This document shows positions 1,693 through 51,777 of a stretch of DNA of 64,000 bases, in pieces; the stretch's first letter is position 1; each line of letters begins with the position of its first letter. The stretch is from Gammaproteobacteria bacterium. Its GTDB lineage: Bacteria; Pseudomonadota; Gammaproteobacteria; UBA4575. The notes beneath the pieces are model-generated. The model was not told the origin of the DNA. It did not search any database and worked only from the letters and a program-made list of their open reading frames with translations. The stretch is taken from contig OZ244849.1 in NCBI GenBank assembly GCA_965220875.1, positions 1,466,401 through 1,530,400 of the forward strand, read 5' to 3'. The translations under genes and the position numbers were made by a program.

Positions 1693-1710
1693 CCGGGGAG
1701 GGTATCCGTC

Positions 1711-6701: not shown

Positions 6702-7717
6702 AAACGCTGCACTGCCTCCTGCTGATCGTGCTGTTGTGGCTGCCTCCCGTGGCCCATGCGGGGTCGATCACCACCTCGCAGATCGTTGCGCGAACCAGTG
6801 ATGCGGCCCTGGCCTGCATGCGCTGGATGCCGGTCGGGGTGTGTTTCTGGCTGCGCTGCTCGCTCTCTGGCTGCAGGGTCAAGAGTTCGCTCAAGGTGGG
6901 TCATTACCAGCCGGATGCGGTCATCAGCAGCTACAACGAGCTGGGCGGCAATCCCTGGGTGGAGATTCGCAGTGCGCTAGGCCTTGTGCAGCGCAGCGCG
7001 GCCAGCGGGCTGCTTGGCAGCCTGCTGAACGTGCCAGCCGGCAGTGCCGGCAACCGCACCGAGGGCGGGCGGGGGAGCCGGGATCACCGCAACCTGGTGT
7101 TCCGGGAGGTGGACGTGATCGGCCATCCCCTGCAGTCCCTGTCCGGACTCGTCGCCACCGCCGGTTACCTGTGCCGTGCACAGACCCGGTCCTACTTTCC
7201 CTATTTCCAGTCAGTGCTCGATGCGCTCGCCTGGCGCACGGGGGCCGTGGAGATGCTTTACCCCGCAAGCCTGGCGCCCGGGCTTCGCGAGATCGGGTCC
7301 TGGCCGGCGCAGAGCTGGGGCAGCGTCTATCCACGCACCGGCTGGGTCATCCAGGCCGAGGAGCCCAAGGCGGCGGCCATTGTCGCACAGCGTGCCGCAG
7401 ATATCGTTACCCGCACGCACCAGCCCCACGTCTACGTGCCGATGACCGGCAGGTCCGGCTCCGGACAGAAGGTCTGGCGGCCCGGCCCCCTGCTTGAAGA
7501 CGACCCCGACACCGGGGAATGGCAGATGCTCCTCCCGAAGCCGGAGTCGGATTGCGGCCGGTTCGGGACGAATGACCTGGCCAGTGTTTCCGGCTGGGGC
7601 GGCGGGCGCATCGATCCCGGGGGAGATTATGTGTGGACCCTGTGGCGGCCCTACAGCTGCTGTCGCGATCGCGGCTCCTTCCTGTTCGAGATCAGCTGGA
7701 CACGGTACCCGCCATGA
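6698..7717 (+). CDS. Exported ICE protein (PFL_4710-like, TIGR03756)
   Basis: ATG 6698; signal peptide MKTLHCLLLIVLLWLPPVAHA; cysteine-rich; stop overlaps the next start (ATGA). Confidence 0.5.
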   Translation: MKTLHCLLLIVLLWLPPVAHAGSITTSQIVARTSDAALACMRWMPVGVCFWLRCSLSGCRVKSSLKVGHYQPDAVISSYNELGGNPWVEIRSALGLVQRSAASGLLGSLLNVPAGSAGNRTEGGRGSRDHRNLVFREVDVIGHPLQSLSGLVATAGYLCRAQTRSYFPYFQSVLDALAWRTGAVEMLYPASLAPGLREIGSWPAQSWGSVYPRTGWVIQAEEPKAAAIVAQRAADIVTRTHQPHVYVPMTGRSGSGQKVWRPGPLLEDDPDTGEWQMLLPKPESDCGRFGTNDLASVSGWGGGRIDPGGDYVWTLWRPYSCCRDRGSFLFEISWTRYPP

Positions 7718-9054
7718 ACACCTCGTACTTCCCCCGGATTCTTCTGTCGTGTGCGCTCATCATGATCAGCCAAGGAGCGGGCGCCGTAAAGGGGCCGACC
7801 GAGGACAGCCTGTGGTACTACGAGATCGGGGGCGCGCAGCCGGTCTCGACCCCGCTCAACCCCTCGGTGGTCTCGGTCACGCTCGGCGGGTCCGCGCAGT
7901 TGGGGCTGGGCTACAGTTGCGGCAAGTTCGATCCGGTGGCGGCGGTCACGAATACGCTCAACGAGATCGGTGCCGGTGCAGACCGCATGATGGATGCGAT
8001 GACGGTGGCGGCCACCAGTGCCATCGCCGCGCTGCCTGCGCTGATCCTGCAGCGCGCCAACCCGGGGCTCTACGACCTGTTCCAGAACGCCCTGATCAAG
8101 GCCGAGGAAACGCTGAGGCTGGCCACCAAGTCCTGTGAGCAGATGGAGGCGGAGATCGCCCAGGGCAAGAATCCCTATGCCGACCTGGTGGTACTGTCCA
8201 AGGGCAACGACTGGAAGGTGCAGATGGGCATCCCCGGCAACGATGCCGTCAGCGCCAAGATCTCGGTGGAGACCGCCAGCGGCGACAACGGGGTCCCCTG
8301 GATTGGCGGCCAGGCCGGCGGCAGCGGCCAGCCGGTGCTGGAGTTCACCGGGGATATCGTCGAGGCCGGCTACAACATCCAGATGAACCGGGCCGTGACG
8401 GACACGAGTCCCATACCGGCGTCCTCCTCCGCACGGCTGTCCGAGCTCTGGGCAACGCCCGCGCTGGCCCGGGACTGGGCGGTGGACGTGGTGGGCGAGA
8501 ACATCGTGACCACCTGCGACACCTGCCGCAAGGACAGCATCCCGGGCACGGGCCTGTTGCCGAGGCTGTTCGAGGAGTCCGCAACCGTCACTACAGACAT
8601 CCAGGCCCTGGTGCAGGGCACGGCCCCGCCCACCCTGGCCAATCTCGAGAAGGTCCGGGCGCCCAGTATCGCCATGACCCGGCAGGTGATCGAGGCCATC
8701 CGCGAGATGCCGGCCTCCGAGCAGGGCCTGATCATGAACCGCCTGGTGTCCGAGATCAGCACGGCGCGCACGGTGGAGAAGGCCCTCCATGTCCGCAGGC
8801 TCCTGCTGTCCGGCCGGCAGGTGCCCGAGGTCTACGCCACGCAGGTCGCCCGCGAGCATGCGGACCAGGCCATCGCGGAACTCGACCGCGAGATTGAGAA
8901 CCTGCTGTTCGAGACCCGCGTGCGAAAGGAGATCGTATCCGGCACCGTCACCACCCTGCTCGAGCGTGCCGCAGCGAGACGGCAGGGCTCGCTCACCGCC
9001 CCCGAGGTGCCGACGCTGGATCCCCATCCGTTGGGGGGCGGGCGTGTCCGGTAG
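7714..9054 (+). CDS. Exported ICE protein (PFL_4711-like, TIGR03755)
   Basis: ATG 7714 (MNTSYFPRILLSCALIMISQGAGA signal peptide); 446 aa; synteny. Confidence 0.5.
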   Translation: MNTSYFPRILLSCALIMISQGAGAVKGPTEDSLWYYEIGGAQPVSTPLNPSVVSVTLGGSAQLGLGYSCGKFDPVAAVTNTLNEIGAGADRMMDAMTVAATSAIAALPALILQRANPGLYDLFQNALIKAEETLRLATKSCEQMEAEIAQGKNPYADLVVLSKGNDWKVQMGIPGNDAVSAKISVETASGDNGVPWIGGQAGGSGQPVLEFTGDIVEAGYNIQMNRAVTDTSPIPASSSARLSELWATPALARDWAVDVVGENIVTTCDTCRKDSIPGTGLLPRLFEESATVTTDIQALVQGTAPPTLANLEKVRAPSIAMTRQVIEAIREMPASEQGLIMNRLVSEISTARTVEKALHVRRLLLSGRQVPEVYATQVAREHADQAIAELDREIENLLFETRVRKEIVSGTVTTLLERAAARRQGSLTAPEVPTLDPHPLGGGRVR

Positions 9055-9418
9055 CCCCCGGCTCCGGCGAAAGGGTCTGGTGTTTTTCACCGCCATCGCC
9101 GTACTGCTGACGGCAGGGTCTGGTTTTTTGCTCATGCACCGCCTGCAGCTCGAATCCGTGCAGTCCATCCGACAGGGCATGCAGGCCTGGAAGCCCGTCC
9201 TGGGGGCCGTGCGCGGGGCCGTGATCCTCTTGGTGGCGCTGGGCTGGAATCGCCTGCTCGCAGTGCTCGCCGGCACAGGCATGCTCCATCCTGCCAGGGC
9301 AGGGCAACTCGCTGCGCTGCGCTGGCGCATCGTGGCCTGGATGGTGATGCTGGAACTGGTGCTGGGGCAGGGCGTGCTGGTGCGCATCATGCAACTTGCA
9401 ACCGGGGCGGCATCATGA
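9044..9418 (+). CDS. Small integral membrane ICE protein
   Basis: GTG 9044; about 124 aa with three predicted TM helices; stop overlaps the traG start. Confidence 0.4.
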   Translation: MSGSPRLRRKGLVFFTAIAVLLTAGSGFLLMHRLQLESVQSIRQGMQAWKPVLGAVRGAVILLVALGWNRLLAVLAGTGMLHPARAGQLAALRWRIVAWMVMLELVLGQGVLVRIMQLATGAAS

Positions 9419-10980
9419 GTGTCGACAGTTATCTTGAGCTTTTCACCACCCTGTTCGGCTGGACCTTCTACGGCATCCTGTGGGACGTGCTGGCCAGCAC
9501 CGGCATCGTCTACCTGCCGTTCCTGGGAATCCTGGTCGATCACTGGCGTGAGCCGGCACAGGGTGCGCAGATGGAGCTTGCCAGCGGCCTGTCGCTGCGG
9601 CGCATGGAGATCGAGCTGTTCATCGCACTGCTGGTGGTGGTCCTTGCCGGACAGCCTGCCGCTCTGACGCCGCTGAATGCCTCAACCCTGTCCTACACGC
9701 CGCCGCCCACCCTCCAGAATCCAACCCCGGCCACGGCCACCGTGGCCTCGTCACAGAGCACCTACGGCACGACCGGCTTTACCGGCACGGTGGCGACCGT
9801 CAACGTGCCGGTCTGGTGGTACGGGGTGATCGCGCTGAGTTCCGGCCTCAATCACGCCATCGTCGAGGGCCTGCCAAGCGTCTCGGACATGCGCACCTAC
9901 GAGCAGCAGGCGCGCCTCGCCACCATTGCCGACCCGCGCCTGCGCCAGGAAGTCAGCGACTTTTTCAGCCAGTGCTACATCCCGGCACGCTCCAGGTACC
10001 GGGCCCGAAGGCCGGACACGCCCGCCATCCAGAACATCCTCGCCACCTACGGCACCGATGATCCGGACTGGATGGGATCCCATGTGTATCGCTACACCCC
10101 GGGGTATTACGATACGCTGCGCCCGGTGCACGCGGTCACGGGCTGGGCGTACAACACCGCCCGGGACACCGAGTACGACCCAAGCGCACCGCCTGCCTGG
10201 GGCAAGCCGACCTGCAAGCAGTGGTGGGAGGACTCGGGAATTGGGCTTCGGGGAAAACTGGTCAATGAGGCGGACGCCACGTCTGCCGGGTTCTCCGGCC
10301 TGGTGGTGGCCATTGCCCCGACACTGGCCAGCGAGCAGCAAAACGATGCCGTGGCCAGGACCGTGCTCACCAACGCACCACCGTCCTGGTCGAGCAACGA
10401 GCTTCTTGTAAACAACGCGTCCGGCCCGGGACTGGTCAGCTCCGCAGGCTCCACCATCAAGAGCGGGCTTGCGGCAGGCGGCATCATTACGGCCTCGGCC
10501 CTGTTCTCGGTCATGATGACCGCCGTGCTCCAGGCCCTGCCCATGATGCAGGCGATCATCCTGCTGGGTATCTATGCGCTACTGCCGCTGCTGGTGGTGT
10601 TGTCCCGGTATTCCATCTCCATGCTGGTCGTCGGGGCCGTGGCGGTCTTTACCGTCAAGTTCTGGAGCGTTCTGTGGTACCTGGCGATGTGGGTGGACCA
10701 GAACCTGATCCTCTCCATGTACCCGGACGTCAACTTCTTCCTGCAGGTGTTCGCCAATCCCGGCGAGCATGATTTCAAGCGCATGCTGCTGAACATGATT
10801 ACCACCAGCCTCTACCTGGGGCTGCCGCTGCTGTGGAGCATCATGATGGCCTGGGCGGGGATCCGGGCAGGGCAGTCACTGGAGCATGCGATGCAGCCGC
10901 TCAGCACCCCGGTTCATGATGCGGGCAGGCAGGGCGGGGCCTTCGGGAAGGCGACAATAGCCCGGGGCGTGAAGAGGTGA
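9415..10980 (+). CDS. traG: TraG-like conjugal transfer membrane protein (TraG N-terminal domain family)
   Basis: 521 aa polytopic membrane protein; last gene of the high-GC block; GC content drops sharply at 10981. Confidence 0.55.
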   Translation: MSVDSYLELFTTLFGWTFYGILWDVLASTGIVYLPFLGILVDHWREPAQGAQMELASGLSLRRMEIELFIALLVVVLAGQPAALTPLNASTLSYTPPPTLQNPTPATATVASSQSTYGTTGFTGTVATVNVPVWWYGVIALSSGLNHAIVEGLPSVSDMRTYEQQARLATIADPRLRQEVSDFFSQCYIPARSRYRARRPDTPAIQNILATYGTDDPDWMGSHVYRYTPGYYDTLRPVHAVTGWAYNTARDTEYDPSAPPAWGKPTCKQWWEDSGIGLRGKLVNEADATSAGFSGLVVAIAPTLASEQQNDAVARTVLTNAPPSWSSNELLVNNASGPGLVSSAGSTIKSGLAAGGIITASALFSVMMTAVLQALPMMQAIILLGIYALLPLLVVLSRYSISMLVVGAVAVFTVKFWSVLWYLAMWVDQNLILSMYPDVNFFLQVFANPGEHDFKRMLLNMITTSLYLGLPLLWSIMMAWAGIRAGQSLEHAMQPLSTPVHDAGRQGGAFGKATIARGVKR

Positions 10981-11277: not shown

Positions 11278-11538
11278 GGCAGCACAACACTTCAAATTGA
11301 GTGTAAGCACGTCTCTAAAGAATATTTTGCAAGACTTAAACGATCATCGCCCACTGTTAGGAGCAATTTTCTGCATACCCAAATACTAAATTCACTTTCT
11401 GTTCCCTTAGTTCTGACAAATGTTTCGTTCCCCTATCATCAGTGCCATACTATCAAGAAATTAAATCGTAATTTCAAGTTATGGGCTTGACTTGTGAGTT
11501 TAGCTGTATTATCATGCAGTTAACACAGGAGAGAAGCC

Positions 11539-12426
11539 ATGAACCTACTACAAATCTTTCACAAATTCCCGGACCAAGAGGCTTGTATCGAACATCTTGA
11601 GAAAGTGCGCTGGGGCGATCACCCATGCTGCCCGCACTGTGGCGGCATTCGGGTTGCCCACAAAGCAGATTCAGACCGTATTGGACGCTGGAATTGCCAC
11701 GATTGCAAGTCCAGCTTCAACGTGCTTTCAGGCACGATCTTCGAGAAAACCAGAGTTCCCCTACAAAAGTGGTTCATGGCAATCGGCCTGATTGTCAACG
11801 CCAAGAAAAGTCTCTCCAGTTGCCAGCTTGCCCGTGATTTGGAACTCACCTATCAGACTGCTTGGTTCATGCAGAAGCGCATCCGCGCTGAAATGGCCAG
11901 CAAGCAGAGCACCATCACCTTGCAGGGTATCATCGAGGCTGACGAAACCTACGTAGGCGGCAAGCCTCGCAAGTTCAATCGCCGTAAGGACGATGATAAC
12001 CAGAAGCCCAATGGCAGAGGCCGTGCCACCAAGAAAACGCCTGTAATCGGGGCTGTGGAGCGTGGCGGCAAGGTAGTTGCCCGCGTAGCTTCAGACCTGA
12101 CAGGCCGAGGCGTACTCAAGTTCATCAAGGACACTGTAGACACTGCTGGATCGGTGTTGATCACCGATGAGTACCGCTCCTACAGGACCGTACGCAAGAC
12201 GATTCCACACTCGGTTATCAATCACAGCAAAGCCTATGCAGAGGGCGTGGTTCACACCAATACGATTGAAGGCTTTTGGGCACTGATCAAACGTTCATGG
12301 TACGGCTCGCATCACCACTACAACCGAGAGCATATCCCGCTCTATATCGCTGAAACCGCTTGGAAGTACAACCACAGGGAGGATGACAACGCATTCGGTT
12401 CATTCGTGCGCGGGTGCTTCGCATGA
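11539..12426 (+). CDS. IS1595-family DDE transposase (N-terminal zinc-ribbon; HTNTIEGFWALIKR motif)
   Basis: 295 aa; CPHCGG...CHDCK zinc ribbon; EADETYVGGK and TDEYRSY/HTNTIEGFW motifs typical of ISXO2/IS1595 transposases. Confidence 0.85.
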   Translation: MNLLQIFHKFPDQEACIEHLEKVRWGDHPCCPHCGGIRVAHKADSDRIGRWNCHDCKSSFNVLSGTIFEKTRVPLQKWFMAIGLIVNAKKSLSSCQLARDLELTYQTAWFMQKRIRAEMASKQSTITLQGIIEADETYVGGKPRKFNRRKDDDNQKPNGRGRATKKTPVIGAVERGGKVVARVASDLTGRGVLKFIKDTVDTAGSVLITDEYRSYRTVRKTIPHSVINHSKAYAEGVVHTNTIEGFWALIKRSWYGSHHHYNREHIPLYIAETAWKYNHREDDNAFGSFVRGCFA

Positions 12427-14021
12427 ATCACCTGTACTACGGGGATTGCCTGACCATCATGCAGGAAATGCCCCTTGCCAGCGTGGACCTGATCTACCTT
12501 GATCCGCCGTTCAAATCAGACAAGGACTACCACAGCATCTACAAGGATGAGACGGGCCGCCCGCTGCCAGACCAGATCGAGGCGTTCTGCGATATGTGGA
12601 CGCTCACTCCAGAGCGCGAGCGGGCCATCAGGCAAATGCCCGCCATGCTTCGGGAGACTGGCATTGATGACAGCGTGGCAGAGTTCTGGCGCATTTGGAT
12701 GAATGCACTGCGCAAGACGCAACCAGACCTGCTGGCCTACCTGTCCTATATGGTGGAGAGGCTTATTTGGATGAAGGGCCTGCTGCGTCCTGCTGGCTCG
12801 ATCTGGCTTCATTGTGATCCCGAAGCCAGCCACTACATCAAGGTCATGCTTGACGGGATATTTGGGCACAACAACTTCCGCAATGAGATTACCTGGAAGC
12901 GTACCAGCTCGCACAGCGACTCAGGGACAATGGGCTGGGTGCATGACGTTCTGCTGTACTACACCAAGGGTGAAAAGTTCACTTTCAACACCGAGCACGC
13001 ACCGCATGACAAGGACTACATAGCCTCTCACTACCGGCACAAGGATAAGGCTGGCCGGAGATTCAGAACTGATAATGTCACGGCTGGCGGCCTGACTGGT
13101 GGCGGGTATGAGTATGAATGGAACGGAGTGAAAAAATGTTGGCGTTACCCTGAACATCGAATGCAGGAGTTACATGATGCGGGCAGGTTGCGATATACGC
13201 GCACAGGCACAGCTGAATATATTCGGTACTTGGATGAATCGGATGGAGTGCCCGTATCGGATTGGTGGGGCGATATTCCGCCTGTCAATTCGCAAGCCAA
13301 GGAACGTATGGGATACAGGACACAGAAGCCACTGAAACTTCTGAAACGCATCATCGGGGTGTCCAGCAACGAGGGAGACGTGATATTTGATCCATTCTGT
13401 GGCTGCGCCACGACCTTGGAAGCAGCCCACGCAATGGAACGCAAATGGATCGGGGTTGATATTGCTATTCATGCTGTCAAACGGGTAGCCAGAATCAGGC
13501 TGCAGGACAGGCTGGGTCTGGTAGAGGGCAAGGATTTTGAAATTGATGGGGTGCCACGCGATCTAGAGGGAGCCAAGGACCTGTGGGAACGAGACAAGTA
13601 CCACTTCCAAAAATGGGCCATAGAGGAGGTGGACGGGTTTGCCACAACCAAACGCACAGCCGATGGTGGTATTGATGGGAGACTCTATTTCGGTGACGTG
13701 GACAGGGATCTGAAAAGCATGGTAATCGAGGTCAAGGGCGGCAAGAATGTGAACATTGCAGACTTGCGGGCATTGCATAGCGTCATGGAACGTGACGATG
13801 CAGAAATGGCTGGCCTGATCATCATGGAGCCACTAGGCAGCCGGAAGGCCAAAAACTTTCATAGGCTGGTTGCCGAGGCGGGTGATATGACAGTACGAAG
13901 CAGGCCGTTTCCCAGAATGCAAATACTGTCAGTGCCAGAGATACTGGCAGGCAAGCGATTTGATACCCCGTACCCGCGTGGCAAGTCGGACCTAGTTCAA
14001 CCAGATATTGGACAGTTCTAG
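12423..14021 (+). CDS. Beta-class amino (N6-A/N4-C) DNA methyltransferase with a C-terminal PD-(D/E)xK-like domain
   Basis: DPPF (motif IV) near the N-terminus and FDPFCGCATT (motif I) downstream, i.e. beta-class order; C-terminal GIDGRLYF...VIEVKGGK nuclease-like motif; start overlaps the tnp stop (ATGA). Confidence 0.75.
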   Translation: MNHLYYGDCLTIMQEMPLASVDLIYLDPPFKSDKDYHSIYKDETGRPLPDQIEAFCDMWTLTPERERAIRQMPAMLRETGIDDSVAEFWRIWMNALRKTQPDLLAYLSYMVERLIWMKGLLRPAGSIWLHCDPEASHYIKVMLDGIFGHNNFRNEITWKRTSSHSDSGTMGWVHDVLLYYTKGEKFTFNTEHAPHDKDYIASHYRHKDKAGRRFRTDNVTAGGLTGGGYEYEWNGVKKCWRYPEHRMQELHDAGRLRYTRTGTAEYIRYLDESDGVPVSDWWGDIPPVNSQAKERMGYRTQKPLKLLKRIIGVSSNEGDVIFDPFCGCATTLEAAHAMERKWIGVDIAIHAVKRVARIRLQDRLGLVEGKDFEIDGVPRDLEGAKDLWERDKYHFQKWAIEEVDGFATTKRTADGGIDGRLYFGDVDRDLKSMVIEVKGGKNVNIADLRALHSVMERDDAEMAGLIIMEPLGSRKAKNFHRLVAEAGDMTVRSRPFPRMQILSVPEILAGKRFDTPYPRGKSDLVQPDIGQF

Positions 14022-14328
14022 TTGAATCAGGTATTTTAAGCCCATAACTTGAAATTACGCAATATAATTGTGGACTTTCATCATTCCATCTTGGATTTCA
14101 GAATCCGACTGCTCTTTAGACAAGACCTCTATATTTTTAAGCACTCTGCGTCCAGTATGTTTATCTACACCCAGAGTATCCAAGGTGATATTGAAAGCAA
14201 GCATTATCCCCTTGATCGTATTTTCGCTTGTATTATCAGGAGTGGATAAATAGCTTGCCTCTTCTAGATTGGCCATATTTCTTCCTTCATCGTGAAGTTA
14301 GTTCACGCATTGATATTCAGTGATGCAT

Positions 14329-21775: not shown

Positions 21776-21943
21776 TTCTGCTAAGACGGCTAGGCTCAGT
21801 TCAGGTACACTTATACACACAAGAGAAACTACTACAGGAGTATTGTAGATTGCGGTCAGGTTTAGTTCAGATACACTCGAACAGATGAACTGCCTGACTT
21901 ATCTCCTATTGTAGATTGCGGTCGGGTTTAGTTCAGATACACT
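21776..21943 (+). CRISPR. Minimal CRISPR array: degenerate repeat, spacer, repeat, spacer, repeat (36-nt repeats ATTGTAGATTGCGGTC[A/G]GGTTTAGTTCAGATACACT, 30-nt spacers)
   Basis: Two near-identical 36-mers at 21842-21877 and 21908-21943, plus a degenerate copy ending at 21811; spacers TATACACACAAGAGAAACTACTACAGGAGT and CGAACAGATGAACTGCCTGACTTATCTCCT; repeat ends GTTGTAG.../...CTACAAT-like as in type II-C. Confidence 0.75.
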
Positions 21944-22188
21944 ATAGCCTGTATAAGCTACTGATAATAAAGGGGAGCTTAGAATATGGATAGTTGTTTT
22001 GGTGCTTGTTCTGTCGGAACACGCTTTGAACCTTGGTAGACTTGCATCCTTTCAAATTGCTTCTCCGTTATCTTTAAAATGCGTACCTCCCCCTTCGGGG
22101 GGAGTATCTTTTTTCGCATTTGTACGCTTTTGGACTTGACAAGTTAGGGTAGTCCCTGTAGTCTATAATCATAGACAAGGGGGCTGAT

Positions 22189-23095
22189 ATGAACATACTA
22201 GATATCTTCCAATCATTCAAAACACAAGAGCAGGCTATCGAATACCTTGAGCAGGTACGCTGGAAAGGCGAGCCGGTTTGTCCATACTGCAAAAGCAAAA
22301 AAACTCACCGGCATGCCAGCGGTGACAGGGCTGACACTCGTTGGCAGTGCCAAGAGTGCACACGGGCCTTTTCAGTCAAGGTAGGCACCATCTTCCACGG
22401 GACACACATTCCCTTGCAGAACTGGTTTCTGCTATTGGGCCTGATGCTGAATGCAAAGAAATCAGCCAGTGCGTGCCAACTGGCCCGTGATCTTGGAATG
22501 AGGCGGCCTACAGTATGGCGCATGATGCACAAGGTTCGCGTGGCTATGGCTAATGATCAAACACAGTCAGATTTGCTTCATGGCATCGTAGAAGCAGATG
22601 AAACCTATGTGGGCGGCAAGCCACGCAAGAGAAAAGTTAACAAAAACAACGATCTACCCCCCCCCCTCAGCCCCTAGAGGCCGTGCTACCCGTAAAACCC
22701 CGGTAATAGGTGTCGTAGAACGTCATGGTCAGGTAAGGGCAGCGACTGCTGAAAGGCGCGACCTGTCAGCCAAAGGGCTGACCCGATTTATCAAGAAACA
22801 TGTGGACCCTGAAGGCTCATGGTTAATGACTGATGAGTACCGTGCCTACCGAAGCATGGCCAAGTTCATTGACCATTCTGTTATTGCCCACACAAGAACG
22901 TATGTTGAGGGGATAGTACACACCAACACGATTGAGGGTTTTTGGGCACTGCTGAAACGTGCATGGTTCGGGTCACACCATCACTACAGCAAAAAGTACA
23001 TGGATTTGTACGTGTCCGAGGCTTGCTACAAGTACAACAGGCGTGAGCACAAGTGTTCATTTGATCACTTGTTGGGGCTCATGGTCAACGCATGA
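22189..23095 (+). pseudogene. IS1595-family transposase disrupted by a frameshift at a 10-C homopolymer
   Basis: ORFs 22189-22677 and 22598-23095 together span a full transposase (zinc ribbon ... HTNTIEGFWALLKR); frame changes at C10 tract 22657-22666. Confidence 0.8.
22657..22666 (+). repeat. Poly-C homopolymer (10 C) inside the transposase coding sequence
   Basis: Seen directly; the copy A transposase has no such tract at the corresponding position. Confidence 0.9.
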
Positions 23096-24729
23096 ACCGG
23101 CTGTACTATGGCGATAATCTTACAATCATGCAAAAGGAGATCGCCGCCCAGTCTGTTGATCTGATCTATCTTGATCCACCCTTCAATTCACAAAAGAATT
23201 ACAACCTGATTTACACACAGGCCACGGGGAAGCCTGTCCCCGCACAGGTGGAAGCCTTTTGTGATACATGGGAACTGGATGCCGAAAAGGAAGAGCTGGC
23301 AAGCAAGATGCCGGTTATCTTGAGAGCCCATGAAGTAGAGGACTATTACGTTAAATTCTGGCGGTACTGGATACTTGCATTACGCAATACCCATCCCAAA
23401 CTTCTGGCCTACCTGCTGTACATGGTGCAAAGGCTTTTGTACATGAAAATTTTATTGAAGCCTACAGGGGCTATCTATCTTCACTGCGACCCGAATGCAA
23501 GCCACTACATCAAAGTCATGATGGATGGGATATTCGGACATGGCAACTTTCGGAATGAAATTACCTGGCGGCGTGTAACTTCGGATCAGAAGGGCAGCCA
23601 ACATGACAGGAAGAGCTGGGGAAACAACGCGGATATCATTCTGTTCTACACAAGGTCCAACCAGTACAAGCTGCATGGAACGCGGCCATTGACTACAGAG
23701 GAAGCTGTTCAGAAATTTAACCAGACTGACGAAACTGGCAGGCGTTATTACGATGACAGCTCACACATATGGAGGACACCCGGCATGGGGCCTCGGCCTA
23801 ATCTGTGCTACGAATGGCGCGGATTTACAAACCCGCATCCAAGCGGGTGGAGGCTGAAGAAGGAAAGGCTTGAAGAGGAATACCAGAAAGGCAATATTGT
23901 TATCCGGCCTGATGGCAAGCTGGAGCGCAGGAAATACGAGGAAGATTATCCGGGTGCGCCAATCGGGAATATATGGACAGACATTGGCCCCGTCCCTGCC
24001 AGAAGTGGTGAACGTATAGGCTACCCTACACAGAAACCAGTGACCCTGCTCAAGCGTATTGTTAGGGCTTCTTGCCCACCTGACGGGCTTGTTTTCGACC
24101 CTTTCTGCGGATGCGGAACTACGACCTACGCAGCACAGGAAACGGGTCGCCGCTGGATTGGATGCGATATAGCGATATTGGCTATCAAGCTGATCAAATA
24201 CAATCTTGAAAAGGCATATGGATTGCACGAAGACAGGGAATTTGAAATTGACGGAATCCCGGTGAGTGTGGAAGGTGCTGTACAGCTATTCAGGAAAGAC
24301 CCGTTTCAGTTCCAGCATTGGGCTGTGGAGCGGGTGGACGGTTTCCCTACTCAAAAGAAAGTGGCAGACAAGGGCATAGACGGCAATATCTATTTTGAAA
24401 CGGATGACGGCTACAAGGACATGGTTATATCTGTGAAGGGCGGGACAGTAAGACCGACAGACATACGCGATCTGAGAGGCGTGCTGGAACGTGATACGGA
24501 CAGTGGCACAGTGATGGCGGGGTTTATATCAAACAGGGAACCTACCAAGGCTATGAAGGATGAGGCGGCCAAGGCAGGCATGTATACTTATGCAGGCCAT
24601 GATTACGAACGCATCCAGCTATTGACTACCAAACAGATACTGGAAGACAAGATGGAGTTCAGGACACCCAGTAAAATTGGTGTGAAGCAAAAGATGGGAC
24701 AGCTAAACCTTGACATCATCAGAGCGTAG
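23092..24729 (+). CDS. Beta-class DNA methyltransferase with C-terminal PD-(D/E)xK-like domain (paralog of 12423-14021)
   Basis: DPPF ... FDPFCGCGTT; C-terminal GIDGNIYF...VISVKGG; ATGA overlap with the transposase stop; roughly 55-60% identity to the copy A MTase by eye. Confidence 0.75.
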   Translation: MNRLYYGDNLTIMQKEIAAQSVDLIYLDPPFNSQKNYNLIYTQATGKPVPAQVEAFCDTWELDAEKEELASKMPVILRAHEVEDYYVKFWRYWILALRNTHPKLLAYLLYMVQRLLYMKILLKPTGAIYLHCDPNASHYIKVMMDGIFGHGNFRNEITWRRVTSDQKGSQHDRKSWGNNADIILFYTRSNQYKLHGTRPLTTEEAVQKFNQTDETGRRYYDDSSHIWRTPGMGPRPNLCYEWRGFTNPHPSGWRLKKERLEEEYQKGNIVIRPDGKLERRKYEEDYPGAPIGNIWTDIGPVPARSGERIGYPTQKPVTLLKRIVRASCPPDGLVFDPFCGCGTTTYAAQETGRRWIGCDIAILAIKLIKYNLEKAYGLHEDREFEIDGIPVSVEGAVQLFRKDPFQFQHWAVERVDGFPTQKKVADKGIDGNIYFETDDGYKDMVISVKGGTVRPTDIRDLRGVLERDTDSGTVMAGFISNREPTKAMKDEAAKAGMYTYAGHDYERIQLLTTKQILEDKMEFRTPSKIGVKQKMGQLNLDIIRA

Positions 24730-24731
24730 CA

Positions 24732-24971
24732 CTAGTATAGTCCAAAAGCGTACAAATGCGTCTTTTTTATTCTTTTGCAGTGTACTTCTGCACTTTCATC
24801 ACTGGCACAGTGTCTAGTGTAAACGGAGTACTGCAGCATTACAAAGCCGTCCGTCATTAGTCTTTTGCGAAATCTACTGTACTGGTATCGGTCAGATTTG
24901 GTTTCGGTTGGGAGGTCAAAAAGAACCATAGTCCACAAACTTCGAAATCCTCCGAAAATGATTTCAGTCAT
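24732..24971 (-). CDS. cas2: Cas2, C-terminally truncated by the IS insertion (last 9 codons and stop supplied by the IS end)
   Basis: MVLFDLPTET...RFRKRLMTDGFVMLQYSVY matches type II Cas2; the reading frame continues across the empty site into a Cas2-like C-terminus ending at 21979. Confidence 0.75.
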   Translation of the reverse strand: MTEIIFGGFRSLWTMVLFDLPTETKSDRYQYSRFRKRLMTDGFVMLQYSVYTRHCASDESAEVHCKRIKKTHLYAFGLY

Positions 24972-25855
24972 ACCAAAGCAGGAATAGTCAGCTTACCTTT
25001 ATGTGTTTCCAACACTTTGCGCAAACTAGCGCAGTAGACTGCCAGCGCACTCATGCAGGGGGTTTTGCGTTTTTTGATTAAAACTGGAGCACTGAGTACT
25101 GTAAGTAAATCATTTTTTGCATTTCTATCCAATCCATTGAATGTTTCGGCTTGTGACAATTTTGCGACACACCGATCTATCAACGGCCTTAGTGGTTCCA
25201 TTACATCATCAGCCAAACAAAAAACATTGTATTGGTTATGATGATGTATGCCGAAAGCAGGATGTAGCCCTGCACTCATGAGTGCACGAGAACATGCTGT
25301 CCGAATCAGACTGTACCCATAATTCAGAAGAATATTTACATCATTTGATCCACTCTGATCCCGTTTGAAATCTTTACCAAAAAGAGATTTGAAGTAGATT
25401 CGAGATGCTTGGGATTCATGATTAGCCGTATCATTCAGTCGCACCGTTTTTGCCAGTCGTTGCAGTCTGGCACTTGTAATCCCATGAACTGAAGTGAGCA
25501 CTGCCGACTGCGTGTAGATTTTTGCTCGAATGATTTGCTGCCAAATAATGTGATGTACTTGTTCTGGAGTTGACGCTTGCATGCGCATAATCCTGCCTTG
25601 AGTTGTATGAGCATCGAGTGGTAAAAGCAGGGAGGCAGGGAGGTGTTTTTCATCCGTGACAATGAGTGCAATGTTTTGTTTGGCACAGTGTCGAAATACG
25701 CTTTGACTGCACGTAATCTGTGGATTGTCCAGAATCAAAAAAGCGATATCATCAAAAGGAATGCTGTGTTTGCCTTCCTCATTTAGGACGATCAACTGGT
25801 TAAGACTGACTTGAAGATGTGCTTCTGAAGAAATTTCTATAGTTCTACGGATCAT
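24968..25855 (-). CDS. cas1: Cas1 (type II)
   Basis: About 295 aa from ATG 25855 (ATGA overlap with the cas9 stop); Cas1-like throughout; an upstream GTG at 25930 is an alternative start. Confidence 0.8.
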   Translation of the reverse strand: MIRRTIEISSEAHLQVSLNQLIVLNEEGKHSIPFDDIAFLILDNPQITCSQSVFRHCAKQNIALIVTDEKHLPASLLLPLDAHTTQGRIMRMQASTPEQVHHIIWQQIIRAKIYTQSAVLTSVHGITSARLQRLAKTVRLNDTANHESQASRIYFKSLFGKDFKRDQSGSNDVNILLNYGYSLIRTACSRALMSAGLHPAFGIHHHNQYNVFCLADDVMEPLRPLIDRCVAKLSQAETFNGLDRNAKNDLLTVLSAPVLIKKRKTPCMSALAVYCASLRKVLETHKGKLTIPALV

Positions 25856-28800
25856 GCTGACGATAACAACCCCAGGTTTCCTAACTCTACCTTCCTGCAG
25901 TTCAGTTTGTCCAAGGATGTAATTCGCCACATTCCCCAGTCTGATTCAGTCCCCGAGACACTATGATGGCGCAGAAAAAGGTCTATCCTCTTGTCACCAC
26001 TGCCGCTCATTTTCTGCACTCTGAAGTACGGTGTCTCTGCGTGCTCAGGTGCAAATTTATTCATATCTTTAAATATACTCATATCCTCGCAATACACCAT
26101 ATCATTGATGCATAGATCCAATTCGTAATACCACCCTTCCAACTCAGAAGGCGGCTCTTTTACTATGACCGGTTTTCCTGCACTGGCACGCTTAGCGGCC
26201 TCCAGCATTGTTATAATCTGAAATCGCCTTTCTTTGTTAGTACCCTCCTGTCCATTATGAAAGATGATCATGTGATGATTGCTGCCGGACAGGACATATG
26301 AGTTGCCTGTCTTGATATAAGATTTTGTCATCGGTCGCGCAATACGAGCTTTCAGGATAGGGGTAGAGGGATTACCTCTTTTGTCAAGCACACGAGGTGG
26401 TGTCTTATCTAGTTTCGCTTTAATTGTGCTGGATTTTTCTCCTACTAGATTATTTATTTCCAACCAGTAGAAAAGGGCATCATGAATAGATTTCTCAACT
26501 ACCCATGTACCAGTCCCTGGTGTCCAATTCCTGGAAAGTTTGGACAGGTACTCAGCTGTCAATTCCTTGCGGCAAGTCACACAAGGTGTCTGATAGATAA
26601 TTTTTGTCAGCTCTTTTCCTTTCCAACGGGGCAATGTGCGGTCAGTTGGCTTAAGTTTTTTTACTTCCGCAGCCCAATGTAACAGGACTGAGCGCAGGTC
26701 CTCATCCAGAATACAACTGCCGCCATCCCCATCTGGTTCAGCTTGTGCAATTTGCTGCACTTTTTTTAGAATATTTGACCTCATGCTCTCAATGTTCAGG
26801 CACTGGTCAAAGTACGATTTTCCATAATTAGTCTCTTCGTGCAAAGCGCCCCAGACTTTGCGTTTGATCATGTGGGATACGACAGTGGTATTCAACCGAT
26901 TACTCAAAAGACTGTGCAAGTCATGACTATCCTCCCAGCTTGTAGACAATCTCAAACGATTCTTCTTGATCCAGTCTTCTTTGGTAGTTCGATGCGGCAA
27001 AAACTTCTTATCCTGTTCCTTTTTATGGGCTTCAATCATTGACTTCAGCATGGCCCGGTCAGTAATGGCCACCACAAACGCATCCACTGCGTGATGACGA
27101 TGGTCGTGTCTCGATTTCTCAGACTTTTCTGCTTTGTCCGCACTATATTGCAAAATTTCACCTGTCTCTGTATCAATCTCTTTACCTGTTTCTATATAGA
27201 CACCAGAATCAGGTTTCCGAGGCAAAACGGAGTTCAATCCCAGTCTCCGACGAAGCTCACTTGTAGCTGCACCGTTATTAACGTCGATTGGTACTCCATA
27301 TTTTTCCAACATCTTTTTTGAAGCTGTAGCAATGTACCGGGTATCATTGAGTTGTCTATTTACGAAATCACTTTCACTTTCCGGGCAATGTGCCTTTTTA
27401 AGGAGATTGTTTCGCTTGCGGAGATTCTGATCCTTGCCAAATTTTTCCTTGGCGAACTTCTCTATATGCTGCCATCGATTCTCATTATGTCCCCAAGCTT
27501 CATAAGGTGTTTGCTTTCCTTTTTCATCATTACAACTGCGGCAACTGACAAGCGTATTCATGTAATTCTGTCTGAAACCTGTGTACGGAAGGATATGCTC
27601 AACTTCTGCTCCACCAGAAAACAGTTGACCGATACCGATCAACTTCTGGCAGTAAGGGCATTGCTCATCCTGCTCTTTCCACATCTTGTATTTTGATCGG
27701 TCATCAGGACTGATACGGCAGGCGACACCTCCTCGCACTCCCTCCAGGTTGATCCCGATACTGCCTGTTTTGTAGTGTTTCAGAATTTCCTCTTCCGCAT
27801 CCTCGTTTCGTTTCCTGTTCTGATTTTGCTGGCTTGCAATCTCAGCACGGTGCCTTTTTGAAGATTTCATCTCCCGCGCCATCTCAATACGGATAATGGC
27901 TGGCTTGCCATAATGCTTCACAATTGCATTCACTACGCGACGTATTTCATAGAGCGCTTTCTGCACGGTCGGGTTCGCTATATTCGGGACATCCTCAATT
28001 TTCAACAGGTACCCTTCGTTAGTCGCTTTCTGTATCTTAGTAATGCTTTCAATTTGTCCAATTTGTTTTACTGCTGCATAAAGGTCCATACCATCACGCA
28101 GATGAGGGAGTAATTCGTTGATAGCCTTAAGACTGTACTTACTATAGCCATCTTCCAACTGTTCGTTCACGGCAAGTCCCAAAGCACCCTTTTCATGGTC
28201 ACGATTAGGAAGATAGGAAGGAAACTTCCAATACTTAACAAGTCTGTCATACAACGTTTTTTTATTGTGCATTGTATGCAGATCTTCAACTAATTTAGTC
28301 TGCTTTTCCTTACCTAATTGCTGCCACGCTCGAATACCAATTGAATGGCTGACGGCTTGAGCCGTTCGATTCCCGATGAGGCCATTTTTCCCTGCACCGT
28401 CATCACGACTCTCGCCATAATTTAGATCCTTGACCTTCACATCTAGCGCCCTAGCAACTTCTTTCCACGAGATACGCCCTTGCCTGTTTAATCTCTCTGG
28501 ATCGTCAGCTAAGTTCGTCAACTGCTCTCGCTGCTCTGCAGTTAACGGTTTTTCACCGATCTGTATATTGTTGATGACCTGAAGGGTCCGGAATTCCTGG
28601 AATTCCAGCCGCATCACAGTTGTGCGTTTCTTTTTTGGATAGATGCTGCAGTTACCTACCGTACTCTTTTGCAATTGAAGCGGGCGTTGATCGAAAATTG
28701 CATCTTTTATCCTAGTAGATTCGTCCTCAGAAAAATGTTGAAAAGAATGTTGCTTTTCCCATATAGCATCAAATTCCCTTTCATACATTTCGCGACTGGC

Positions 28801-29595
28801 ACGAAATTCCAATTTTTCAATAACAGTTTCACCTTTATGGGGTTTGGACCTTTCAAACTGAAACAGCGTGATGCGATGAGGTGGTATTTGCTTATCCTGC
28901 GATGCCTGCCAAATAAACTGGCCAAGGGTACGGTTGCCAAGCTTTTGATCTAACTCGTCAATCGCTGCTAAAACAAGACCTGTTTCTCTTTTCTCCTCCC
29001 CACTCAGGGTGTCCTGATCATCTTTAGGCGTTATGAGGTTCAAGGACTTAATCAGTTCAACATACTTTGCGCCCCGATTGCTGAAATACCCACGTCTGCG
29101 TTGCAAATGCAGTAGCAATCTACCAAACTCGTGAGGCTCCAGTTCTTCTACCAAAGAAAAATTTCGCATGGCATAAGGAGAGCAGTACGCTTTGTCAGTA
29201 ACAGACCATGCCTTGGACCAGGGTTTGCCAAGCTTGCGTTCGGCATATCTTCGGTCGATTTTATTAAGCGCTTTTTCCGGATTTACTTGGTAGTCCTGAG
29301 GTAGCAAACCTTTATTTAGAAGTATGCTTACAAGTTTTTTACGACGTTCTTTGTAATATGCTCGACGGTTGCGGGCACCATGTGCCTCACGGCGTTTTTG
29401 ATTTTTTGGGACCCGTGTTTTGGCCTCCAGCATCTCCAAAAATATGCGAGAGTTCAAAGCGCGCAATGAAACCGGCTGATAGCCGGCATAAATTCCTTGA
29501 TGGTTGCCTTCCTCTAGCTTGCAATCTACAACTGCCCATCCAATAGAACTGGAACCCACATCTAGGCCAAGAATGTAGGAATCTTTGTTTTGCAT
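25852..29595 (-). CDS. cas9: Cas9 (type II-C-like, 1247 aa)
   Basis: RuvC-I ILGLDVGSSSIGWAVV; arginine-rich bridge helix; HNH CPYCQ...EVEHILPYTG...CRSCNDEKG; RQLNDTRYIA and HHAVDAFVVAIT RuvC motifs; no csn2 or cas4 nearby. Confidence 0.9.
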   Translation of the reverse strand: MQNKDSYILGLDVGSSSIGWAVVDCKLEEGNHQGIYAGYQPVSLRALNSRIFLEMLEAKTRVPKNQKRREAHGARNRRAYYKERRKKLVSILLNKGLLPQDYQVNPEKALNKIDRRYAERKLGKPWSKAWSVTDKAYCSPYAMRNFSLVEELEPHEFGRLLLHLQRRRGYFSNRGAKYVELIKSLNLITPKDDQDTLSGEEKRETGLVLAAIDELDQKLGNRTLGQFIWQASQDKQIPPHRITLFQFERSKPHKGETVIEKLEFRASREMYEREFDAIWEKQHSFQHFSEDESTRIKDAIFDQRPLQLQKSTVGNCSIYPKKKRTTVMRLEFQEFRTLQVINNIQIGEKPLTAEQREQLTNLADDPERLNRQGRISWKEVARALDVKVKDLNYGESRDDGAGKNGLIGNRTAQAVSHSIGIRAWQQLGKEKQTKLVEDLHTMHNKKTLYDRLVKYWKFPSYLPNRDHEKGALGLAVNEQLEDGYSKYSLKAINELLPHLRDGMDLYAAVKQIGQIESITKIQKATNEGYLLKIEDVPNIANPTVQKALYEIRRVVNAIVKHYGKPAIIRIEMAREMKSSKRHRAEIASQQNQNRKRNEDAEEEILKHYKTGSIGINLEGVRGGVACRISPDDRSKYKMWKEQDEQCPYCQKLIGIGQLFSGGAEVEHILPYTGFRQNYMNTLVSCRSCNDEKGKQTPYEAWGHNENRWQHIEKFAKEKFGKDQNLRKRNNLLKKAHCPESESDFVNRQLNDTRYIATASKKMLEKYGVPIDVNNGAATSELRRRLGLNSVLPRKPDSGVYIETGKEIDTETGEILQYSADKAEKSEKSRHDHRHHAVDAFVVAITDRAMLKSMIEAHKKEQDKKFLPHRTTKEDWIKKNRLRLSTSWEDSHDLHSLLSNRLNTTVVSHMIKRKVWGALHEETNYGKSYFDQCLNIESMRSNILKKVQQIAQAEPDGDGGSCILDEDLRSVLLHWAAEVKKLKPTDRTLPRWKGKELTKIIYQTPCVTCRKELTAEYLSKLSRNWTPGTGTWVVEKSIHDALFYWLEINNLVGEKSSTIKAKLDKTPPRVLDKRGNPSTPILKARIARPMTKSYIKTGNSYVLSGSNHHMIIFHNGQEGTNKERRFQIITMLEAAKRASAGKPVIVKEPPSELEGWYYELDLCINDMVYCEDMSIFKDMNKFAPEHAETPYFRVQKMSGSGDKRIDLFLRHHSVSGTESDWGMWRITSLDKLNCRKVELGNLGLLSSA

Positions 29596-29624: not shown

Positions 29625-29732
29625 TACTAAATAGTGTATCTGAACTAAGCCTGCTCGTTTTTTACAACAAAATTCTAGCAGGATATGTCTTTTATGACTA
29701 AACCTTAACGCCTCTCAATGGGGCGTTTTTAG
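29625..29732 (+). ncRNA. Candidate tracrRNA (anti-repeat + intrinsic terminator), divergent from cas9
   Basis: 29633-29668 AGTGTATCTGAACTAAGCCTGCTCGTTTTTTACAAC is complementary over about 30 of 36 positions (including G-U pairs) to the CRISPR repeat; hairpin CGCCTC-TCAAT-GGGGCG followed by TTTTT at 29709-29730. Confidence 0.6.
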
Positions 29733-30979
29733 TTTTAGGCAACTTGAATTTTAGAGGCCACCCTTTTTGGTACCGCATTGAGTACGAATCTGGCGGACTA
29801 TGCAGCCTTCAATGCCACATAATTACTGGACGTGATTATCCCCTGAAAACAAGTACAACTGTATTATGTGATTTTGCGATCATCCGAGGATAGCCGATGA
29901 CAGCGAGTTTCGCACCTACTTCTGTATTGAACAAGTACTGTGATTTGTGGGTCACTTGTAATCCTGCGCGTGGTGAGTAAGTCTATACTCAGTATGGGTG
30001 TTATGAGCATGATTCCCTGTTCATGCAAGCCCTAGGTAAAAAGGCACCCGAAAATACATTTTCATTCCTTGGGATACAGGCCATCGCTACTGGATAGTAG
30101 AGGCCAAGTCTACCTATCGTAGCTTTTCTCTAAGCCTTGGGAGAGGCACAAGACTACTCTGACAAAGTGAATCAACTTGGAGTTGGGCTCAGCAAGATTT
30201 GCCACTGAAATTGCAGGCACGATCAGTCTTTTTATGTAACTATTGCTTATTGGAATGGTAAAGAATGGCTTGAAGTTGCCATCAATAATTACGAAACCAC
30301 AGGCTTTCATACTCTAGACCAGTGCCTGAACATTCTGGACAGGAACAGCAACATTCTACCTCTTTTCGATGATGAGCCAGACAGGTTCTTGCGTAATGTA
30401 AACGCTATAAATCAGACCTTGCATGACAATGAAGTGCCAGCAAGAACAGGGCAAGCGTTATGGCAGCTCTATTGCTAGCAGTAGTGCAAGACGGGAAATT
30501 TACGTATCCATGCTAAGCTTAAGATTACTAATTCCGTAGTCAAATCAGGTGTACAGGCAGCTTGAATTGTCAGCCACTCTGCTGCTTGTATTGATCACTT
30601 CCTTACCGTCTTGGGCTGAAACTCTAAGGGATTTGCCCGAGTTAATACTCGTCTGATACGGCGGAAAATACTGGACTGTACATGTCCTGAGAGGACAGTA
30701 GTGGCTATCGCACCCAGACTGGCAAACGCCCTATTGCATCAACACAGAAGGCTGTTGCCATTGCTTCAGACCGAAATGATGAACGGGGCTCTTATTTCTT
30801 TTGATCACCTAGCAGGACTCACCGCTAAAGGTGGTGAATATGTGCGGAATCCTAAGAGCTTGCTTTGGTCTAAAGCGTTGCGAGAACTGAGAGATCAAGG
30901 CATTAGTAGTAACGACAGCAACGTTGATTGAGTATATCCCTGTCTTGATTTCTAAACTCTTAGACGTCAAATAAAAATT

Positions 30980-31471: not shown

Positions 31472-31798
31472 CTAAGCGTCGCTTTGATGCGTTATTTGAG
31501 GCAATGGTCGTCCGAGGCCGGTCACCAGATCGTCGAAAATCGAACCCGGCTGTTCGCGACGGTTGTAGCGGTAGTTGAACTCTTTCATGTGCTTCCAAAG
31601 GTGCTGCTTCGAAACGTGTACATGCGTCCCCCGAATTGAAAACTTTAAACGCGACCAGAAAGTTTCAATCGAATTAACATGAACATCACTCCTTGCAATA
31701 CATGCATGGTTAAGTGGTGATAGGTGTTCTGAGCTGTACTGTAGCGGTTTGTCCGATGACGATGAAATCACCGCCGAGTATTGCCGGACCATGCACAC
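31472..31798 (-). pseudogene. IS1595-family transposase C-terminal fragment
   Basis: HVNSIETFWSRLKFSIRGTHVHVSK...YRYNRR matches the transposase C-terminus; the N-terminal half is missing where high-GC DNA begins. Confidence 0.7.
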
Positions 31799-39079: not shown

Positions 39080-39566
39080 TACCAGAAAACCCGCTGGATG
39101 GTGATGTAGAAGCGGATGAAACCTATATCGGAGGCAAGGCTTCTGGTGGCAAGCGTGGAGCGGTGCTCCCAACAAGTCTATCGCTTTCGGAATGCTGGAC
39201 CGGGATGGGGATGTAATGACCGAGGTTGTCCCGAATGTTAAGAAGAACACCCTTCAACCGATTATTGCTGCTAACGTCAAAAAGGGCAGCACGGTGCATA
39301 CTGATGAGCTTCGCTCCTATAAGGGACTGGACAAGGCTGGGTATGAGCGCAAGCGAGTTAACCACGGAACCGGGCAACACGTGAAAGACGATTGCCACGT
39401 CAACAGCATTGAAGGCTTTTGGGCCAGGTTGAAACTGTCTATTCGCGGTACACATATCCATGTCTCTAAGAAGTGCCTTCGGAAGTATCTGAAGGAGTTT
39501 GAGTTTCGCTACAACTATCGGAACAAGCCTGAGCAGATGTTTCCTGACTTGCTTTCTTCCCTATAG
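39080..39566 (+). pseudogene. IS1595-family transposase remnant (frameshifted, lacking the N-terminal third)
   Basis: EADETYIGGK motif at about 39100 then frameshift; ORF 39192-39566 carries HVNSIEGFWARLKLSIRGTHIHVSK; closely related to the 31472 fragment. Confidence 0.75.
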
Positions 39567-51700: not shown

Positions 51701-51777
51701 TGGTCGGAGTGAGAGGATTTGAACCTCCGACCACCGCAACCCCATTGCGGTGCTCTACCAAGCTGCGCTATTCCCCG
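51701..51777 (-). tRNA. tRNA-Pro (anticodon GGG) with two mismatches at the base of the acceptor stem
   Basis: Reverse complement CGGGGAAUAGCGCAGCUUGGUAGAGCACCGCAAUGGGGUUGCGGUGGUCGGAGGUUCAAAUCCUCUCACUCCGACCA has the general tRNA-Pro cloverleaf layout; anticodon loop AUGGGGU; positions 6-7 do not pair with 66-67. Confidence 0.6.

Follow-up and report, generated by a model that had tools for sequence, protein, structure and literature searches.

That cas genes are interrupted by insertion sequences (ISs) is well documented in nature: 28 curated and 163 ISEScan-detected cases, distributed over 20 IS families and 57 genera, have been compiled (Sheng et al., 2023, Nat Commun, PMC10359306). [quoted passage not shown] The case presented here was found in a stretch of 64,000 nucleotides from a gammaproteobacterium of the UBA4575 lineage (assembly GCA_965220875.1, contig OZ244849.1, positions 1,466,401 to 1,530,400), hereafter the window, to which all coordinates refer unless another locus is named. 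While the cases cited above concern effector genes, the gene interrupted here is the adaptation gene cas2 and the element, designated IS-A, also carries a methyltransferase gene; moreover, its family, IS1595, is not mentioned in the text of PMC10359306. It is very likely that IS-A, an IS1595-family transporter IS (tIS) with an orphan beta-class methyltransferase, entered the cas2 gene of a type II-C locus by transposition, with duplication of 8 bp of the target, and that adaptation would be lost in consequence while interference could persist.

The IS1595 family is defined by 8-bp target duplications, a single transposase, an N-terminal zinc finger and a DDE_Tnp_IS1595 domain (PMC8101967), all of which are found in IS-A except that the transposase does not form one intact open reading frame (ORF). 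Among the tISs of this family are tISCpe8, MTnSag1/tISSag10 and ISNha5 (Siguier, Gagnevin and Chandler, 2009, cited in PMC11891212 and PMC5704250). According to the two citing articles, these tISs have, like IS-A, a transposase with a zinc ribbon and a DDE_Tnp_IS1595 domain, terminal inverted repeats, an 8-bp duplication and a downstream passenger inside the repeats. The passengers named in these articles are lincomycin resistance (tISCpe8, MTnSag1), mobilisation genes and transcription regulators (ISNha5), and it is IS220, from the IS1380 family and not from IS1595, that is credited there with a methyltransferase, the type of passenger found in IS-A (PMC11891212; PMC5704250). As in a tIS, this passenger is unrelated to transposition and lies between the transposase gene and the right inverted repeat. 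Regarding the CRISPR-Cas system, the closest described counterparts are the type II-C systems of Neisseria meningitidis and Campylobacter jejuni (Zhang et al., 2013; Dugar et al., 2013; PMC5965381), which have the same operon of cas9, cas1 and cas2 only, followed by the array after cas2. CRISPR RNAs (crRNAs) in Neisseria and Campylobacter start at promoters inside the repeats (PMC5965381). The locus in the window resembles them further in that crRNA and trans-activating crRNA (tracrRNA) are opposite to the cas genes and that a -10-like TACACT stands at the 3' end of each repeat; it differs in its larger Cas9 (1247 aa), in an array that is down to two spacers and in repeat promoters that are a matter of resemblance.

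IS-A spans 2646 bp (22115-24760, + strand) and consists of a transposase gene and a methyltransferase gene, both on the + strand and antisense to the cas genes. It is delimited by two 22-bp terminal inverted repeats, CGCATTTGTACGCTTTTGGACT on the left (22115-22136, +) and its counterpart on the right (24739-24760, -), which match perfectly at 22 of 22 positions, continue as arms reaching 30 nt at 90% identity and abut both copies of the 8-bp sequence TCTTTTTT (22107-22114 and 24761-24768). By our own arithmetic, the chance of an 8-bp match at two fixed positions is about 1.5e-5. Within the window, the CGCATTTGTACGCTTTTGGACT terminal repeat is confined to the two ends of IS-A, and no match was obtained in shuffled sequence. 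Both Pfam domains typical of the family, Zn_ribbon_IS1595 and DDE_Tnp_IS1595, are present in the transposase, and the passenger gene (23092-24729) is situated inside the inverted repeats. An earlier sequence-only reading of this DNA, which had proposed an IS1595-family element with a methyltransferase passenger and an exact 8-bp direct repeat at its borders, is therefore confirmed. Among the named subgroups of the family (ISPna2, ISNwi1, ISNha5 and others), the ISNha5 group presumably has CGGnnTT ends, which the ends of IS-A (CGCATTT and CGGAATT) recall. A blastn search with IS-A against PLSDB plasmids returned no copy of the element, the only hit being a methyltransferase gene matched in part (15%), and a search of the JGI metagenomes for the inverted repeats as an exact pattern gave no match. 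The best sigma-70-like site of the region (24710-24738, +; TTGACA, 17 nt, TAGTAT; 10 of 12 matches) points outward at the right end of the element, antisense into cas2'-cas1. Such an outward promoter was rejected as a feature of the wider lineage, only the sister element L005 described below having it besides IS-A.

The insertion lies directly after codon 70 of the 112-codon cas2 and cuts off the last third of the protein. As sequenced, the cas2 ORF (24732-24971, -) comprises 70 native codons, nine codons contributed by the element (THLYAFGLY) and a stop, for a product of 79 aa, while codons 71-112 and the native stop are left detached at 21979-22114 (-). Excision in silico of 22115-24760 together with one copy of the duplication yields an ORF of 112 aa whose stop codon occupies 21979-21981. 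When this reconstructed Cas2 was used as a database query, 533 homologues were obtained, the best six of which are full-length proteins of 112-115 aa that are 81-88% identical at 97-100% query coverage. The junction (...CKRIKK|ILPPKGEVRILKITEKQFERMQVY...) is conserved in the Cas2 alignment, and the segment beyond it (ILPPKGEVRILKITEKQFERMQVY...PTEQAPKQLS.F) ranks among the best conserved stretches of the family. The protein matches CRISPR_Cas2 (PF09827, E = 5.5e-19) and TIGR01573, and its AlphaFold model (predicted local distance difference test score 84.5) displays the ferredoxin-like beta1-alpha1-beta2-beta3-alpha2-beta4 fold of Cas2, with beta1 at residues 12-19, alpha1 at 25-40, beta2 at 44-47, beta3 at 50-55, alpha2 at 58-70 and beta4 at 77-84. 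Since alpha2 and beta4 occupy these positions, the model shows the insertion point to be the exact end of alpha2, and the 79-aa product is devoid of beta4 and of the 28-residue C-terminal tail. Structural comparison of the model ranks highest the Cas2 chains from complexes of type II Cas1-Cas2 integrases, in agreement with a sequence search of the PDB. Residues 9-104 align in sequence with Cas2 of 5xvn/5xvp (E. faecalis) and 8q2n/6qxf (S. thermophilus), and the model superposes on such chains with template-modelling (TM) scores of 0.73-0.80 at 35-40% identity; these are II-A systems, with no II-C Cas1-Cas2 structure among the matches. The sequence-only reading had likewise concluded that cas2 closes after nine IS-encoded codons, that reading across the empty site restores a complete C-terminus ending at 21979 and that the restored protein is a type II Cas2, and these three points hold. 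It had placed the cas2 end 36 bp from the last CRISPR repeat, which is right to within one base: 35 nt separate the reconstructed stop from the nearest repeat (21908-21943), and the spacing is the same in the related loci L001, L004 and L014.

The empty site itself is found in a close relative. A search with Cas9 led to the protein P0272 (94% identical, 1247 aa), whose contig corresponds to locus L014 (ENA ERZ25069580, 2.14 Mb). Read from 29829 to 24760, the window matches L014 9767-14836 over 5070 bp covering cas9-cas1-cas2, at 94.7% nucleotide identity and without indels; read from 22114 to 21842, it matches L014 14828-15100, in direct continuation of the first block. The two blocks overlap in L014 by 9 nt, and this overlap holds a single copy of AAAAAAGA. 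The cas2 of L014 is complete (112 of 112 aa aligned, 94.6% identity) and is followed, beginning 36 nt after its stop, by a 29-repeat array. At a greater distance (about 76-78% nucleotide identity), the relatives L001, L002/L003 and L004 also have an uninterrupted cas9-cas1-cas2-array succession with the same spacing, with 22 repeats in L001 and at least 57 in L004. The related genomes that the sequence-only reading had named as a check thus show an element-free junction with one copy of AAAAAAGA and a complete cas2. Its further description of the event as a clean and datable inactivation stands as far as the transposition signature is concerned, which is clean; a date can be given only relative to the split from L014. 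Judged from this comparison, the insertion postdates the separation from the L014 lineage, from which the window has diverged by about 5% in nucleotides.

The transposase gene is broken as sequenced. Its N-terminal ORF (22189-22677, +; 162 aa) encodes the zinc ribbon together with the first 24 DDE-domain positions, and its C-terminal ORF, in the +1 frame (22598-23095, +), matches positions 30-153 of the DDE_Tnp_IS1595 profile. The break falls in a run of ten C (22657-22666, +), the equivalent of which in the sister element L005 is a run of nine. When one C is deleted, a 301-aa transposase results, in which DDE_Tnp_IS1595 (PF12762) is matched in one stretch over positions 2-153 of 153 (E = 6.4e-34), and which is 92% identical to the intact 300-aa transposase of L005; Zn_ribbon_IS1595 (PF12760) is matched with E = 1.6e-11 on the ORF at 22189-22677 and 8.6e-11 on the frame-corrected protein. 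In L005, C9 is followed by GCA, and in the window C10 is followed by TCAGCC, a difference of 4 nt; one C fewer restores the frame. Only two homopolymers of at least 8 nt exist in the window, the C10 run and a G11 run (60551-60561), and both stand at frame breaks. The latter separates the ORFs 60185-60568 and 60561-60812 by a +1 break, and without one of the Gs they are fused into a 208-aa protein that begins much like a signal peptide and ends in ...RYHF, for which no Pfam match was obtained; the G11 run reflects either a homopolymer error of the assembly or phase variation of the gene. As for the C10 run, a homopolymer consensus error and a real mutation are equally likely, because the close relatives are, judging by their contig names, long-read metagenome assemblies. 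The transposase of another member of the lineage, L016 (1987-3004), from a long-read metagenome-assembled genome, is also split, into ORFs of 285 and 70 aa, the longest homopolymer there being 4. Because the frame is broken in the C10 run, the element may now be immobile, unless the break is a sequencing error.

The following course of events can be proposed. A transposase with zinc-ribbon and DDE domains would have moved the element, together with its methyltransferase gene, into cas2 right after codon 70. The Cas1-Cas2 integrase would then be unable to form, and the acquisition of spacers would cease. A polar effect on cas9 and cas1 is not expected, because cas2 closes the cas9-cas1-cas2 operon. 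By analogy with the II-C systems of Neisseria and Campylobacter, crRNA synthesis would begin from promoters within the repeats, so that interference by Cas9 with the two remaining spacers could persist. The position of cas2 at the end of the operon and an array with its own transcription make this persistence a reasonable expectation, and loss of adaptation with retained interference, which the sequence-only reading had put forward, is plausible from the sequence, because cas9, cas1 and a tracrRNA candidate are intact.

These components are as follows. The cas9 gene (25852-29595, -) encodes 1247 aa (TIGR01865) with RuvC_III, HNH and alpha-helical lobe domains, 94% identical to P0272 and of the same length as in relatives; cas1 (24968-25930, -) is of type II (TIGR03639, cas1_NMENI), its listed ORF beginning at an upstream GTG, with relatives of 295-297 aa. 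Neither gene has indels in comparison with L014. The tracrRNA candidate (29632-29737, +) lies just upstream of cas9 and is composed of an anti-repeat (29632-29668) and a terminator hairpin (29707-29727) followed by a T-run; the predicted duplex of the anti-repeat with the + strand repeat has an energy of -45.6 kcal/mol. Because the anti-repeat pairs with the + strand repeat, crRNA and tracrRNA would both be transcribed in + orientation, against the direction of the cas genes. With cas9, cas1 and cas2 only, and neither csn2 nor cas4, the composition is that of type II-C, and between the array and position 30980 there are no further Pfam-matching ORFs.

The array (21776-21943, +) is a remnant, with two 36-nt repeats (21842-21877 and 21908-21943), two 30-nt spacers (CGAACAGATGAACTGCCTGACTTATCTCCT and TATACACACAAGAGAAACTACTACAGGAGT) and a distal half repeat (21776-21811). 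About 20 nt of this half repeat, on the cas2 side, match a variant of the L014 repeat (95%) and the remainder bears no relation to it, which gives the appearance of an array severed within a repeat. Compared with two spacers in the window, L014 has 28, and a comparison with these 28 revealed no shared spacer. Neither of the two spacers had a match in IMG/VR, and no self-target was found within the window. The distance from the array to a traG-like gene is about 10.8 kb in the window vs. 0.8 kb in L014; therefore, the distal end of the array has been remodelled, either before or after the hit in cas2. The 10.8 kb beyond the half repeat, missing in L014, contain a second element designated IS-B, a 5'-nucleotidase-like gene (PADLOC PDC-S08), an HNH protein and BrnT/BrnA. 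On the cas2 side of the array, a GC-rich hairpin (CTCCCCCTTCGGGGGGAG, followed by TATCTTTTTT; 22087-22104, +) resembles an intrinsic terminator on the crRNA-sense strand and lies within cas2 codons 71-77; its T-tract is the left copy of the target duplication and the place where IS-A inserted. The hairpin with its T-tract (22087-22114) belongs to a 32-nt stretch that is identical in L001, L002 and L004 despite an overall identity of about 77%, and the variant in L014 still pairs. It may serve as a terminator of array transcripts. A general targeting of hairpins or terminators by the lineage was considered and rejected, as the empty sites of six relatives share no structure or motif.

On the array side of the CRISPR-Cas locus, genes for conjugation of the integrative conjugative element type (DUF2895, DUF3438, TraC, DUF1525, TraU and TraG_N) are present both in the window (5-10980) and in L014 (17720-23744), at 85% nucleotide identity. 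Because they flank the array side in both, the II-C locus may be cargo of such an element or adjacent to one. A tRNA-Pro gene (51701-51777) is a possible attachment site, and no integrase was found.

With regard to the passenger, the gene at 23092-24729 (+) encodes a 545-aa beta-class N6/N4 DNA methyltransferase, and its start overlaps the stop of the transposase (ATGA). Residues 22-368 match PF01555 (N6_N4_Mtase, E = 1.2e-37). The beta class is assigned because DPPF (motif IV), near the N-terminus, precedes FDPFCGCGTT (motif I, FxGxG-like). The C-terminus is a restriction-endonuclease-like domain matching NA-iREase1, an 'inactive REase' family (E = 8.9e-8). No cognate endonuclease gene was found within IS-A, the ORFs of which are those of the transposase and the methyltransferase only, and PADLOC and NCBIfam models detect methyltransferase similarity alone, the partial matches to adenine-methyltransferase models falling below their cut-offs. 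As no endonuclease gene accompanies it, the passenger is treated as an orphan, and it is probably an N6-adenine methyltransferase. Only one database entry (P0121) matches it at 100%, the next best being 64% identical.

The combination of this type of transposase with a methyltransferase is not limited to IS-A. A homologous methyltransferase gene directly follows the transposase in 13 of 13 loci (IS-A, IS-B, L005-L013, L015 and L016), from metagenome-assembled genomes of Proteobacteria, Acidobacteriota and Binatia. Inverted repeats with the core GTACGCTTTTGGACT are present wherever the ends of an element fall within the examined sequence, except that those of IS-B differ, and 8-bp duplications flank six elements other than IS-A (L009, L010, L011, L012, L013 and L015). 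The closest relative is L005, a 2835-bp contig with the intact 300-aa transposase, the same ATGA overlap, repeats of the sequence GGCATTTATACGCTTTTGGACT and the 64% identical methyltransferase. Compared with the 92% identity of the transposases, that of the methyltransferases is low, suggesting that the passenger either diverged much faster than the transposase or was exchanged. In L006, the locus of the third-best methyltransferase, the C-terminus of a transposase and a right inverted repeat are visible. A scan of species-representative genomes with the corrected transposase gave seven loci (L007-L013; 61-65% identity), in metagenome-assembled genomes of Burkholderiales, Acidobacteriaceae, Rhizomicrobium, Binatia and Alphaproteobacteria. 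In each of the seven, the gene directly downstream encodes a homologous methyltransferase (50-54% identical). Six are bounded on both sides by 22-bp inverted repeats of the CGGnnTnGTACGCTTTTGGACT form, only the left one having been found in L008, and five (L009-L013) have an 8-bp duplication; the contig of L007 stops 2 nt past the right repeat, where a duplication is unreadable. Two of the elements are longer, L011 with 3.5 kb and L013 with 4.2 kb. L015 and L016 were picked among lower-ranked methyltransferase homologues for their long contigs, and in each of them an IS1595 transposase precedes the methyltransferase. In nearly all members, a -35-like TTGAC motif stands at the inner edge of the left inverted repeat, as does TTGACA in IS-A; by analogy with other ISs, this suggests that the transposase, by binding there, may regulate its own promoter.

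The second such element of the window, IS-B (11467-14059), is located 8 kb from IS-A. It has an intact 295-aa transposase (52.5% identical to that of IS-A), a 535-aa methyltransferase (44.6%) and perfect 22-bp inverted repeats (CGTAATTTCAAGTTATGGGCTT) unlike those of IS-A in sequence. No target duplication is found at its flanks (AATTAAAT vs. CAATATAA), which suggests a later rearrangement at one end. Five more transposase copies or remnants of the IS1595 family (31514-31720, 39094-39521, 42925-43737, 44876-45280 and 58822-59718) share about 30-46% identity with IS-A in the parts that match, one of them being seemingly intact (269-aa ORF, 58909-59718), and the region is unusually rich in this family. 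Another CRISPR-Cas locus is reached by the lineage in Rhodomicrobium lacus (CP125860.1), where L015 (2030-4665), with the duplication TACTTTAA, lies 23 nt upstream of the start codon of cas3 in a type I-C locus (cas3, cas5d, csd1) and is oriented as cas3. A preference of the lineage for defence islands was nevertheless rejected, the flanks of eight other loci being ordinary metabolic genes.

This second insertion next to a cas gene raises the question of whether the hit in cas2 was selected for disabling or freezing CRISPR immunity, the lineage being an anti-defence element by which CRISPR-Cas would be shut down or rewired and the genome of the host methylated. Selection for ISs in cas genes has been observed experimentally in E. 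coli (PMC10359306), and conjugation genes adjoin the locus in the window and in L014. However, no cas or defence gene flanks the eight other genomic loci, the six other duplicated targets share neither a motif nor a hairpin, and one extra cas-adjacent case out of 12 is anecdotal; furthermore, an insertion in cas2 leaves interference in place, which is the activity that becomes costly when a host takes up mobile elements. An anti-defence function is therefore rated as improbable, chiefly because of the flanks of the eight other loci. The same low credence is given to a more elaborate scheme, in which the lineage would form a very large, cross-phylum IS1595-type group of tISs with the GTACGCTTTTGGACT core and the stop/start overlap, the methyltransferase would be obligate (for instance, in coupling transposition to methylation or shielding host or element DNA from restriction), CRISPR-Cas loci would be hit repeatedly by what would be a mobile anti-defence module and the C9/C10 run would act as a slippage switch instead of being damage.

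It can also be asked whether Cas2 still functions, either because the 79-aa product suffices or because the fragments complement each other. Only the scaffold role of Cas2 would be needed, its catalytic activity being dispensable for integration in E. coli, and the left inverted repeat does offer an ATG (22119-22117) in frame with the detached part, opening a 46-aa ORF (22119-21979, -) that starts with MRKKILPPKGEV... Against this, the truncation strips, according to the model, one strand (beta4) of a four-stranded sheet as well as the tail, the scan gave no minus-strand promoter-like site near the left end of IS-A, no Shine-Dalgarno sequence is seen by eye before the ATG and the array has withered to two spacers; survival of the function is accordingly very improbable. 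Still less credit is given to the possibility that the filled cas2 site arose in assembly or is carried by only a minority of the population. That the relatives are long-read metagenome assemblies and that both homopolymers of at least 8 nt coincide with frame breaks hint at consensus errors, but a perfect duplication next to perfect inverted repeats, where a relative has a single copy of the site, is the signature of real transposition, a chimeric join would create no duplication and the window contains no other copy of IS-A that could cause a mis-join. Transposition of IS-A into cas2, with adaptation lost and interference potentially retained, consequently remains strongly favored, although three observations weigh against parts of it. 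The transposase consists of two ORFs as sequenced, which casts doubt on the current activity of the element and on the timing of the break relative to the insertion. The promoter inside the repeats is a resemblance in sequence (TTGCGG, 16 nt, TACACT at the repeat end) that the consensus scan did not list. Finally, no empty site was found in the same species, the exact junction pattern giving no match in the JGI metagenomes.

The event is real and of a well-known type: as both ISs in cas genes and passenger-carrying IS1595 elements are documented, it does not change what is known. It is nevertheless an unusually complete case, with the filled site, the empty site of a close relative and the restored protein all in hand. 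The lineage that combines a transposase with a methyltransferase is the more useful by-product, its second cas-adjacent hit being a lead. For type II-C systems, the case shows a route by which the adaptation module may be lost and the effector kept, possibly on the way to a locus that is frozen or decays.

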